A stretch of 64,000 nucleotides of DNA. Origin: an uncultured Phycisphaerales bacterium (GTDB lineage Bacteria; Planctomycetota; Phycisphaerae; Tepidisphaerales; Tepidisphaeraceae). The notes beneath the pieces are model-generated. The model saw only the letters and a list, made by a program, of their open reading frames with translations, did no database searches and had not been told where the DNA came from. Position numbers and translations under genes: made by a program. Below are positions 15,472 to 18,188 of the stretch, in pieces. Numbering within the stretch: position 1 is the stretch's first letter; the number at the start of each line of letters is the position of its first letter. The stretch spans positions 3,584,001 through 3,648,000 of the forward strand of contig CAVWVQ010000003.1 in the NCBI GenBank assembly GCA_963758525.1, written 5' to 3'.

Positions 15472-15535
15472 TGCGGGGGATTGTAATGCGGGGATTGGGG
15501 GATGCCAGAAGGGGGGGAGAGGCAGGAAAAGACAA

Positions 15536-15657
15536 AGGAACGAAGGCACGGAGGCACGAAGGCACGAAGGGGAGGACGCTGCGCGGCGGCGGAGTGTATG
15601 TACTTCTTCCTGCCTTCCTTACCCTTCGTGCCTTCGTGCCTATGTGCCTTCGTGCCT
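15536..15657. repeat. Octamer foldback array (GGCACGAA)n ... (TTCGTGCC)n
   Basis: Tandem octamers with an inverted second arm; a second copy lies at 50846-51011. Confidence 0.85.
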
Positions 15658-15683
15658 TTCTCATTCTTCCCTCAATTTTGTTC

Positions 15684-15712
15684 TTGCAATTTCATGATTG
15701 GTTGGCAATAAT
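15684..15712 (+). promoter_or_regulatory. Putative sigma70 promoter of the leader-tRNA-rtcB transcript
   Basis: TTGCAA-17 nt-AATAAT in an AT-rich patch. Confidence 0.6.
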
Positions 15713-15747
15713 TCAACCTTAGCTTCGTTTGTGTCGAAAGAGGTAAC

Positions 15748-15837
15748 GTGCAACACTTGAGAATAACTATTAGCAGGGCCTGCCGGAAATCGCTTCAAGA
15801 GCGATTCGTCGGCATGGATCGACGCCCAGCGCACTGA
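15748..15837 (+). CDS. Putative leader peptide (29 aa, MQHLRITISRACRKSLQERFVGMDRRPAH)
   Basis: AAAGAGG SD 4 nt before GTG; six Arg codons of five kinds plus ATA, ATT, AAA, ATG and GAT; the stop overlaps alternative hairpins. Confidence 0.6.
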   Translation: MQHLRITISRACRKSLQERFVGMDRRPAH

Positions 15838-15940
15838 CTCCTCGCCTTTTCGGCCGGGAGTTCTTCCCGGCTGCCTGACACTTTTTTTTGTGATGCCCGG
15901 GAAGAATTGAATCGCAGCCGCGATCGCGCTGGCGGGCGTT
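15836..15940 (+). promoter_or_regulatory. Attenuator-like alternative hairpins with a T8 tract
   Basis: 15836-15846/15852-15862 competes with 15851-15859/15865-15873; T8 at 15882-15889. Confidence 0.5.
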
Positions 15941-15998
15941 CTTCGTTTTGTGGCTCGAAATGTCGGGGAAACAGGCGTTTCCCATTCGGAGATACTGC

Positions 15999-16070
15999 GC
16001 GCTGTTAGCTCAGAGGAAGAGCATTCCGTTGATAACGGAAAGGCCGGAGCGTCGAGAACTCCACGGCGCA
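15999..16070 (+). tRNA. tRNA-Ile(GAU) with an aberrant T arm (possibly pseudo or tRNA-like)
   Basis: Acceptor GCGCTGT/ACGGCGC, D stem GCTC/GAGC, anticodon arm TTCCG-TTGATAA-CGGAA. The T arm GGAGC-GTCGAGA-ACTCC lacks GTTCR. Confidence 0.8.
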
Positions 16071-16073
16071 TAC

Positions 16074-16147
16074 GCATCGATGGTCCAAATGGATAGGGCG
16101 CCGGACTACGAATCCGGACGATGGAGGTTCGACTCCTCCTCGATGCA
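16074..16147 (+). tRNA. tRNA-Arg(ACG)
   Basis: GCATCGA/TCGATGC acceptor, CCGGA-CTACGAA-TCCGG, GGAGG-TTCGACT-CCTCC, A20 present; no encoded CCA. Confidence 0.95.
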
Positions 16148-16201: not shown

Positions 16202-16275
16202 GCACCGGTAGCTCAACGGAACAGAGCAGCTCTCTTCTAAAGAGCTTGATGGGGGTTCGAATCCCTCCCGGTGCA
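16202..16275 (+). tRNA. tRNA-Arg(UCU)
   Basis: GCACCGG/CCGGTGC acceptor, GCTCT-CTTCTAA-AGAGC, GGGGG-TTCGAAT-CCCTC; no CCA. Confidence 0.95.
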
Positions 16276-16296: not shown

Positions 16297-16369
16297 GCAC
16301 CGATAGCTCAACCGGCAGAGCTGCCGGCTTTTAACCGGAAGGTTGCGGGTTCGACTCCTGCTCGGTGCA
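16297..16369 (+). tRNA. tRNA-Lys(UUU)
   Basis: GCACCGA/TCGGTGC acceptor, CCGG-CTTTTAA-CCGG, GCGGG-TTCGACT-CCTGC; no CCA. Confidence 0.95.
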
Positions 16370-16371
16370 AA

Positions 16372-16445
16372 GGTTCGTTAGCTCAGATGGACAGAGCGCC
16401 GGCTTGTCACGCCGAAGGTCACGGGTTCGATCCCCGTACGGACCG
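16372..16445 (+). tRNA. tRNA-Asp(GUC)
   Basis: GGTTCGT/ACGGACC acceptor, G73 discriminator, CGGC-TTGTCAC-GCCG, ACGGG-TTCGATC-CCCGT. Confidence 0.95.
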
Positions 16446-16456
16446 CTGAAGAAAAC

Positions 16457-16530
16457 GGGAGCGTAGCTCAGCAGGCAGAGCGGGGGCCTCATAAGCCCCA
16501 GGCCGTTGGTTCGAATCCAACCGACTCCCA
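16457..16530 (+). tRNA. tRNA with CAU anticodon (Ile2 or elongator Met), bulged acceptor stem
   Basis: GGGAGCG/CG(A)CTCCC acceptor, GGGGC-CTCATAA-GCCCC, GTTGG-TTCGAAT-CCAAC. Confidence 0.88.
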
Positions 16531-16553: not shown

Positions 16554-16658
16554 GTACCACGGGTTTCCAACCCGTGCGAGCAGCGCCAGAAGAAAGAAAT
16601 TAGTATTACCGGGCATTGGTCTACCACGCCAACTGCACGGGTTGGAAACCCGTGGTAC
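16554..16658. repeat. REP-like doublet, family B
   Basis: GTACCACGGGTTTCCAACCCGTG ... CACGGGTTGGAAACCCGTGGTAC; copies at 21765 and 52222. Confidence 0.9.
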
Positions 16659-16676
16659 GGTGTGTACGGGTGAATC

Positions 16677-18188
16677 ATGGCAGACGAATCGGAAAACTCC
16701 TCATCGGCGATCATCCCCACGGGCGAAGCGACGGGATTTCTGCCGGTGCGCAACGGCGCCGGCGGGAAGCCGATCACCGTCATTGGAACGCAGGCAATCC
16801 GCGACACGTTCGATTCGGTCTGTCTTCAACAGGCGATCAACTCGCGTCTGGCCCCGGGCGTCACGGATGTCGTGCTGAATCCCGATGCTCACCGCGGATA
16901 CGGCGCTCCGGTCGGGTCGGTGATCGTTTCGCCCACGCATATTTACCCGGGGCCGGTCGGAGTCGACATCAAATGTTCGATGAGCCTGTTGCAGTTCGAT
17001 CTTCCGGCCGAGGCAGTGGCGGGAGAGAAGATTCGCCGTGCGCTGATCAATGCGATTTTGGAGCGGACGCCGACCGGCGCGGGCAAGGGACTGCGCGACG
17101 CGCGCAAGGCGCGCCGCGTGAGTCCGCAAATCGGCAAGATGGCGGTGGTGGAAGGGGCTTCGCCGGCGGTCTGCGCTGCGCTGGGAGTTCCCGCGGAGTG
17201 GGCGTCGCGCTGCGAAGACGCGGCTCACGTCGGACACGACGACACGCCTGACGCTTTGGCGATGCGCCTTGATCGCATGCTTGCCAATGAACCGCGTGGC
17301 AAGTTCGAGTCGAGAATGAGCCAGATCGGAAGCTATGGCGGAGGGAATCACTTTGGCGAATGTGAGATCGTGCAGGTTGCCGACGACGACAGCATGCGCG
17401 CGGTGGCGGATGTGTTTGGCCTGCGCGACGGGCACGTCGCGTTTCTCTCGCATTGCGGGTCGCGCGGTTTCGGACATCAACTGGCAAGCGGTCAGTTCCG
17501 CTCGTTGCAGGAACGGTTTGCCAAGTGGTCCATCCCGCTGCCGGGAAATGATCGCGAGCTGGTCTACGCGCCGCTGGGAACTCCCGAGGCCGATGCGTAC
17601 ATTGACGACATGAGCCTGGGGGCGAACTTCGCAACGGTCAACCACATGGTGATCAATGCGCTGGTGCTCGAAGCATTCCAGGAAGTGATTCCGGGTGTGA
17701 CGGGCCGGCTCGTCTATTTCATCAGCCACAACATTGCGCGAAAGGAAGTCGTCGACAACCGGATTGCGTGGGTTCATCGCAAGGGAGCGACGCGCGCGTT
17801 CCCGGCGGGGCATCACGCGCTGAAGAACACGCCGTTCGCCCAGAGCGGGCATCCGATCCTGCTGCCGGGGAATCCGCGCGAAGGGTCGATCGTGATGGTT
17901 GCGCGCCCCGAGGCGGCCAAGAGCGTCTACAGCGTCAACCACGGCGCCGGCCGGCGTCTGGGCCGGCGCGATGCGATTCGCAAGCTGGATCAGGCCGAGG
18001 TGGACGCGGGCCTTGCCGAGTGCGATGTGATGAGCAATTGCCGGCAATATCCGAAGGACAAAGCGCCGGATGCGTATAAGGATTTTGGCGAAGTCGTGCG
18101 GTCGGTAGAGCTCGCAAAGCTGGCGCGCGGCGTCGCGCGGCTCAAGGCGCGGTTTGTCATTAAGGATTCATCGGACGCTGATGATTGA
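16677..18188 (+). CDS. rtcB: RtcB-family RNA ligase
   Basis: PDAHRGYGAPVG, VGVDIKC, GSYGGGNHFGE, HCGSRG, HNI, HRKGAT and NHGAGR motifs. Confidence 0.95.
   Translation: MADESENSSSAIIPTGEATGFLPVRNGAGGKPITVIGTQAIRDTFDSVCLQQAINSRLAPGVTDVVLNPDAHRGYGAPVGSVIVSPTHIYPGPVGVDIKCSMSLLQFDLPAEAVAGEKIRRALINAILERTPTGAGKGLRDARKARRVSPQIGKMAVVEGASPAVCAALGVPAEWASRCEDAAHVGHDDTPDALAMRLDRMLANEPRGKFESRMSQIGSYGGGNHFGECEIVQVADDDSMRAVADVFGLRDGHVAFLSHCGSRGFGHQLASGQFRSLQERFAKWSIPLPGNDRELVYAPLGTPEADAYIDDMSLGANFATVNHMVINALVLEAFQEVIPGVTGRLVYFISHNIARKEVVDNRIAWVHRKGATRAFPAGHHALKNTPFAQSGHPILLPGNPREGSIVMVARPEAAKSVYSVNHGAGRRLGRRDAIRKLDQAEVDAGLAECDVMSNCRQYPKDKAPDAYKDFGEVVRSVELAKLARGVARLKARFVIKDSSDADD

Follow-up and report, generated by a model that had tools for sequence, protein, structure and literature searches.

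The element described here is a conserved leader that heads supernumerary tRNA arrays in the Tepidisphaeraceae. In the window, the 64,000-nt stretch of DNA that was analysed, a short open reading frame (ORF) ends on a series of alternative hairpins and is followed by six tRNA genes. That a switch of some kind is coupled to this upstream ORF (uORF) appears very probable. On balance, we lean towards an attenuator of transcription that senses ribosomes: in normal growth it would hold the array silent, probably via Rho, and when ribosomes stall it would let transcription proceed. The earlier note on this DNA had described the hairpins and the leader ORF; it did not name the target, a supernumerary tRNA array.

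Organization of the leader

The leader in the window consists of the following parts.

15684..15712, + strand: sigma70-like promoter, -35 and -10 hexamers with a 17-nt spacer (sequence motif, predicted)
15739..15743, + strand: Shine-Dalgarno-like site of the leader ORF (from the sequence; a purine-rich site precedes most homologous starts)
15748..15837, + strand: leader ORF of 29 codons, GTG to TGA (predicted ORF; length and position conserved, peptide barely)
15781..15814, + strand: hairpin within the leader ORF (-16.2 kcal/mol; leader ORFs are generally structured)
15838..15846, + strand: segment 2, C-rich, beginning directly after the stop (when free, its partner is segment 3)
15851..15860, + strand: segment 3 (alternative partners, segments 2 or 4)
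15861..15873, + strand: segment 4 (alternative partners, segments 3 or 5)
15874..15896, + strand: spacer between segments 4 and 5, containing T8 at 15882-15889 (from the sequence)
15897..15906, + strand: segment 5, nearly a repeat of segment 3 and an alternative partner of segment 4, which it captures (from folding)
15901..15949, + strand: 5:6 hairpin followed by a short U-run, locus-specific (-15.5 kcal/mol)

The TGA stop codon of the ORF occupies 15835-15837. Hairpin 2:3 (15836-15846/15852-15862), hairpin 3:4 (15851-15859/15865-15873) and T8 lie exactly where the earlier note had placed them, and the 8-nt gap that it remarked on between the 3:4 stem and the U tract is confirmed. The pairing of 15859-15870 with 15897-15908, which it listed third and undervalued, is 4:5; it is present and is as conserved as 2:3 and 3:4. 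The hairpin proposed within the ORF was likewise recovered. A duplex between the leader 3' end and 15926-15940 can form in the window (-18.9 kcal/mol) but was rejected as a conserved feature, as the copy's own partner was better than a foreign one in 35/65 copies.

Helix energies in the window were -11.2 kcal/mol for 2:3, -16.4 kcal/mol for 3:4 and -19.7 kcal/mol for 4:5, and fold z-scores were -3.99 for 15845-15892 and -2.31 for 15830-15950. The leader had no Rfam match at the gathering score (best E 0.56 over 15600-16000), and there was accordingly no sign of the independent known ncRNA that the earlier note had considered. Across the curated set of 65 copies described below, a promoter-like motif was found upstream in 43, compared with 2.7% in shuffles. 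In homologues, the spacer between segments 4 and 5 is rich in A/U and poor in G and folds into a stem-loop inside the 4:5 hairpin.

A small 5' hairpin before the ribosome-binding site (window ~15718-15738) showed one- and two-sided changes in 31/65 copies and is degenerate in the window. Further upstream, between pdxJ and the promoter, positions 15535-15665 hold short repeats in an inverted arrangement, from which a 20-base unit has 135 matches genome-wide.

The downstream tRNA genes and rtcB

The following genes lie downstream of the leader.

15999..16070, + strand: tRNA-Ile (GAT) with an atypical T arm (Rfam; anticodon from the sequence; missed by ARAGORN)
16074..16147, + strand: tRNA-Arg (ACG) (Rfam, ARAGORN)
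16202..16275, + strand: tRNA-Arg (TCT) (Rfam, ARAGORN)
16297..16369, + strand: tRNA-Lys (TTT) (Rfam, ARAGORN)
16372..16446, + strand: tRNA-Asp (GTC) (Rfam, ARAGORN)
16457..16529, + strand: tRNA-Met (CAT) (Rfam, ARAGORN)
16677..18188, + strand: candidate RtcB-family RNA ligase gene (RtcB-family models, best E 1.6e-63, below curated cut-offs)

The rtcB-like gene is on the same strand as the tRNA array. A conserved link between rtcB and the leader was rejected, since six close orthologues of the window gene had neither leader nor tRNA array upstream. Upstream of four of these six there are, in place of tRNAs, YrlA-like Y RNAs, one or two per gene (L002:1045-1332, L003:3011-3268, L005:2999-3272 and L007:62-207; two above Rfam's gathering score). 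A palindromic REP-like repeat with 33 genome matches lies between tRNA-Met and rtcB (16554-16590 and 16635-16660), and REP-like tandem copies near C3:4444749-4445560 were mis-called as tRNA-Ser.

Three paralogous leaders in one genome

The leader core recurs twice in the genome of the window (G000), at C3:44297-44264 before a Thr/Tyr/Trp tRNA cluster and at C3:3763787-3763821 before a 15-tRNA array. The same leader type therefore precedes all three supernumerary tRNA arrays of this genome. Both paralogues retain the promoter motif, the ribosome-binding site and segments 2-5, and their ORFs of 29 or 27 codons have a stop touching segment 2; T8 is absent from both. In-frame read-through past the leader stop was rejected because the frames differ among the three paralogues.

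The arrays span C3:43672-44047, 3599999-3600529 and 3764011-3766477. They have no anticodon in common, and all 24 array anticodons are duplicated as stand-alone copies elsewhere in the genome. Arrays of relatives hold up to 29 tRNAs in conserved order over 4 kb; long, non-periodic and made up of supernumerary tRNAs, they have the features of an L-array. The window array is a six-gene remnant. With the exception of a displaced His gene, the three arrays preserve the gene order of the relatives' intact array of ~28 tRNAs, and on gene content and order they are likely to be complementary remnants of such a ~28-gene array, produced by duplication and then reciprocal loss.

Distribution of the leader

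A 19-base core, with one mismatch allowed, matched 43/141 family genomes, and the reversed control pattern had 0 matches in the same 141. This distribution, together with the recurrence before two more tRNA arrays in the window genome, places the stems of the earlier note beyond chance. There were 52 distinct 19-mer matches; L041, L042 and L055 were dropped as they are without segments 2 and 5, which left 49 copies (L082-L084 are repeats of L053, L035 and L058). Of a further 33 matches, found by a covariance model only, visual inspection retained 17; one of these, L115, nearly duplicates L162 and was removed, so that 16 remained. The curated set comprises these 49 core matches and 16 divergent copies. 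At E<=0.01, the covariance model matched 63/141 family genomes, a number that includes weak chance matches and the unpublished G004, a genome on which nothing stated here depends.

A tRNA gene lies on the same strand within 1.5 kb downstream of 56/65 curated copies, and at least five tRNAs follow in 34/65; nine copies have no tRNA within 1.5 kb. A search with array DNA, which could miss divergent arrays, matched 29/141 family genomes, and each of these also holds a leader match scoring at least 42 bits (compared by eye). A strict-pattern scan of named genomes gave three records, which are the same sequences as three family loci and belong to the Tepidisphaeraceae. Neither the 130 non-family genomes in the class sample nor the 149 in the phylum sample yielded a convincing copy; their best matches, of 34.5 and 29.4 bits respectively, were inspected. 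A search of 300 other Planctomycetota genomes at E<=1e-22 did not reveal this array type.

Other copies lead to genes for EF-Tu (L038, L070), RNA ligases (L163, L167), a ferritin-like protein (L175) and a GNAT protein (L044). Pfam gave no match for 71 of the 92 downstream ORFs scanned. At L038 and L070 the leader is followed by one to three tRNAs and then by the EF-Tu gene, an arrangement that suggests that the same control extends to a spare elongation factor. At L032, L034, L036 and L072-L075 the first array gene (tRNA-Val), just past segment 5, has apparently decayed while the leader is intact.

The leader ORF is part of the element

We examined the position of the stop codon in the 49 copies that had been found via segments 3-4 alone. 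An in-frame stop lies 0-3 nt before segment 2 in 47 of them, compared with 12% in a shifted-position control. In the remaining two, L049 and L072, the usual stop is lost and a TAG inside segment 2 ends the ORF; a stop within segment 2 also occurs in L232 and L235. The 16 model-found copies provide no independent evidence on stops, because the covariance model includes stop-codon columns. The homologous ORFs of the 49 copies mostly have a purine-rich site and an ATG or GTG start and are 27-35 codons long, and all three stop codons are used.

Metagenomic and viral sequences were searched with a pattern of segments 2-4 only, in which no stop was demanded. Among the matches listed (120 of ~210 stretches), at least 115 were distinct, 113 metagenomic and two viral. 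Of those listed, 57/79 matches with a stop lead to tRNAs, compared with 1/36 without, so that 57 of the 58 tRNA-linked matches have a stop at or in segment 2; in the single exception the stop sits 4 nt upstream. Some metagenome contigs duplicate genome loci, and related copies are not independent. The viral matches have neither segment 5 nor tRNAs.

Over 13 disjoint pairs, dN/dS was 0.64, a sign of weak constraint on the encoded peptide, which is also varied, with a mean of 17 different residues in 31 codons and no dominant residue. No regulatory codon run is conserved among the leader ORFs, Arg occurring at 1.09x the expected frequency and Met at 2.5x but scattered, and no conserved C-terminal arrest peptide was found among them. 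The RNA of the ORF is structured, with a median z of -2.0 over 65 copies. L045 and L170 have Gln-rich leader ORFs with Gln codon runs before arrays that start with tRNA-Gln, and are possibly a codon-specific variant.

Alternative folds of the leader RNA

Constrained folding with and without a ribosome bore out the stop-anchored switch of the earlier note: when segment 2 was covered the RNA formed 3:4, and otherwise 2:3. Free RNA comprising segments 2 to 5 adopted the 2:3+4:5 fold in 49/49 and 69/70 copies, and RNA lacking segment 5, with the first 10 nt past the stop blocked, adopted 3:4 in 49/49 and 70/70. For the window at length 15912, the probability of 3:4 was 0.96 with a ribosome at the stop and 0.00 for upstream stalls. 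The predicted folds are mutually exclusive, one stem against two, as in the corA/mgtA type. Before segment 5 is made, 3:4 is still the equilibrium fold in 42/49 and ~62/70 copies in the absence of a ribosome, and once segment 5 is made, 3:4 is retained under a covered segment 2 in just 27/49 and 52/70. The decision must therefore be kinetic, and the ON path needs kinetic persistence of 2:3.

We considered whether the polarity might be the reverse, with 2:3+4:5 as the OFF state and 3:4 as the ON state, the latter held by a ribosome that lingers at the stop because its release or recycling is slow, as happens in tnaC and speFL. The distance from the stop to segment 2 stays within a few nucleotides, as in stop-stalling leaders reported in PMC12360218, and the RNA returns to its 2:3+4:5 equilibrium after ribosome release. 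Against this, 2:3+4:5 has no evident termination route, as 4:5 is without a U tail (3/65) and hides pyrimidine tracts; stalling at the stop is also at odds with the use of all three stop codons and with the absence of a conserved arrest peptide from the C-terminus. We regard the reverse polarity as distinctly unlikely.

A covariation check of the kind proposed by the earlier note did not support the core stems, conserved as they are across copies: none of the 15 core pairs showed two-sided covariation, and the score equalled that of shuffles, the core pairs being near-invariant. Structural support comes from the variable inner 4:5 stem and the variable 3:4 loop. The inner 4:5 stem varies in sequence yet pairs better than shuffles in 60/65 copies and better than swapped halves in 57/65. 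Segment 5 is paired in 61-65 of 65 copies at each of its six core positions. A 1:2 pairing was rejected, its probability exceeding 0.5 in 4/65 copies.

A bound protein could be another cause of the near-invariant core. In its strongest form this would make the inverted repeat a DNA operator or protein-binding site to which the ORF is incidental, and a near-invariant dyad free of two-sided covariation is what such a site would show; a cyanobacterial L-array is reported to be run by a DNA repressor, TrcR (PMC10272220). We consider an operator highly improbable here. Among the 16 model-found copies the half-sites are 1 to 5 nt apart, the promoter lies ~140 nt before the site, and segment 5, as a third repeat, is conserved along with the pairing spacer. 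Loss of the stop has also been compensated twice by a stop inside segment 2, and again in L232 and L235.

Output of the proposed switch

With tRNA genes as targets, the control has to be exerted on transcription or on processing. If the switch governed processing or decay of the primary transcript, for instance through nuclease access to the A/U-rich spacer or the long 4:5 hairpin, this would suit products that must be cut from a precursor and a long hairpin that directly precedes the first tRNA in some copies. A single cleavage on the 5' side could scarcely control as many as 29 tRNAs spread over 4 kb, however, and the architecture is unchanged in copies before protein genes, which makes this explanation very unlikely in our judgement.

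Intrinsic termination at 3:4 followed by the U8 tract, as in the trp attenuator, was the output favoured by the earlier note. The U-run is neither adjacent to the stem nor conserved: at least five T in 8 nt within 0-5 nt of segment 4 were found in only 3/65 and 1/70 copies. The U-rich stretch is located 10-19 nt past 3:4, where T frequency reaches 52-66% at 14-18 nt past segment 4, and the U-run in copies is usually the 3' arm of the inner 4:5 stem, paired with a conserved A-rich arm.

The same switch, with the same polarity, might instead act through 3:4 freeing segment 5 for a 5:6 terminator. In the window the 5:6 hairpin, followed by a short U-run, forms solely with a ribosome at the stop (probability 0.75, compared with 0 without). 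It is a possible intrinsic terminator at this locus only; its 3' arm is lost in the closest relative, L243. Terminator-like hairpins of <=-10 kcal/mol overlapping segment 5 occur in 12/65 copies, the window included, compared with 8% of shuffles, a weak enrichment on which a general, family-wide 5:6 pairing was rejected. A conserved terminator after segment 5 was also rejected, any terminator <=85 nt from segment 5 being found in 28/65 copies and in 45% of shuffles. Several copies have no room for a terminator, because their first tRNA begins 14-28 nt from the start of segment 5. The genome does have canonical hairpin-plus-U terminators after stand-alone tRNAs (14/54, compared with 13%). Intrinsic termination, at 3:4 or at 5:6, therefore seems an unlikely output for the switch.

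We favour Rho as the terminating factor because the tracts beside 3:4 are C-rich and G-poor, freed by 3:4 and hidden by 2:3+4:5, as in the corA leader. In that leader, the OFF stem is reported to prevail when the uORF is translated efficiently; pyrimidine-rich rut regions lie on both sides of it, and the two stems of the ON state sequester them (PMC11552253, PMC12360218). The C/G ratio is 6.0 in segment 2, 2.8 in the linker and 1.6-1.8 in the spacer, compared with ~1 in the flanks; these C>G tracts beside the OFF stem are short, and their C-richness is partly forced by pairing with the G-rich segment 3. The genome encodes rho (TIGR00767 over the cut-off in G000). The exposed tracts total ~40 nt, with a spacer more A/U- than C-rich, and the optimum length of a Rho site is given as 60-90 nt (PMC12360218); by that comparison, the shortfall would count against Rho.

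In the proposed Rho-dependent mechanism, a ribosome that keeps pace with RNA polymerase and arrives at the stop would force 3:4 and then leave. On either side of 3:4, the C/U-rich segment 2 with its linker and the G-poor spacer would now serve as the two halves of a Rho loading site. Release of polymerase, perhaps after a pause in the U-rich spacer, would follow before or among the first tRNAs; at the window locus the 5:6 hairpin may add intrinsic termination. If the ribosome stalled upstream or failed to load, 2:3 would form first and 4:5 would lock the fold. Both pyrimidine tracts would be hidden, the structured ORF would offer no Rho entry, and the tRNAs would be transcribed. The signal is likely to be general translation trouble and not a single amino acid.

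In its fullest form, this proposal makes the leader a peptide-independent sensor of ribosome speed that gates, across the family, a complete spare set of tRNAs by hiding or exposing a Rho site. We hold that version tentatively, with slightly less than even confidence. If it is true, some copies also gate spare EF-Tu or RNA ligases, and loss of working tRNAs would feed back directly, through stalling of the leader ribosome, to turn replacement tRNAs on. It would also be a riboregulatory counterpart to cyanobacterial TrcR, and a Rho-dependent attenuator with a non-coding RNA output.

Comparison with known systems

The closest match in topology, 3:4 against 2:3+4:5, is with the corL-corA and mgtL-mgtA leaders of Salmonella and E. 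coli; the likeness is one of topology. Those leaders are reported to respond to Mg2+ via Pro or acidic codons and to control transporters, whereas the leader described here precedes tRNAs and its use of Rho is predicted only. Like the PA5471.1 leader of armZ (RtcB-like)-PA5470 in Pseudomonas aeruginosa, for which leader-peptide attenuation sensing ribosome-targeting antibiotics has been proposed, our element may report on the ribosome; that leader has an intergenic region with predicted terminators and protein targets, as against a tRNA array and no conserved canonical terminator here (PMC12057347). The variable uORF of the actinobacterial whiB7/wblC attenuator is described as sensing broad translation stress, a stall leading to read-through, as proposed here. 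It differs in having a Rho-independent terminator, a longer and Ala-rich uORF and a transcription factor as target (PMC10274678).

Trp/his-type attenuators share a leader ORF that ends on a cascade of alternative hairpins (PMC10274678). Of the trp-attenuator-like logic in the earlier note, the stop-fused leader ORF switch stands, with a stop at or abutting segment 2; a regulatory codon run and a U tract directly after 3:4 are both absent. The element is not a member of the trp type, because these two defining features were tested and not found.

The tRNA arrays themselves resemble the L-array of Anabaena sp. PCC 7120, a long supernumerary array whose trn operon is reported to be silent until translation is impaired (PMC8421152). 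That array is co-regulated with rtcB, dpsA and GNAT genes (PMC8421152, PMC10272220), and control there is exerted at initiation by the DNA-binding repressor TrcR (PMC10272220), unlike the leader-based control proposed here. Direct repeats over the -10 box, to which TrcR binds, characterize the TrcR regulon. The words 'leader' and 'attenuat' are absent from the main texts of PMC8421152 and PMC10272220. Silence in normal growth and induction by stress have been demonstrated for Anabaena only; under the reading favoured here, the Tepidisphaeraceae arrays would behave likewise.

In the open-access literature searched, we found no description of a leader-ORF attenuator on a tRNA array or of this element. 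Attenuators controlled by a uORF are already known as a class. To our knowledge, the switching-on of silent tRNA arrays is known for cyanobacteria only, where it is achieved by a repressor. The leader would offer a different solution in the Planctomycetota, in which the ribosome itself reports translation failure and would release a full set of replacement tRNAs. With well over a hundred natural copies, including some in which the stop has moved and yet remained on segment 2, the element lends itself well to studying how a leader makes decisions without regulatory codons and without a U-tailed terminator.
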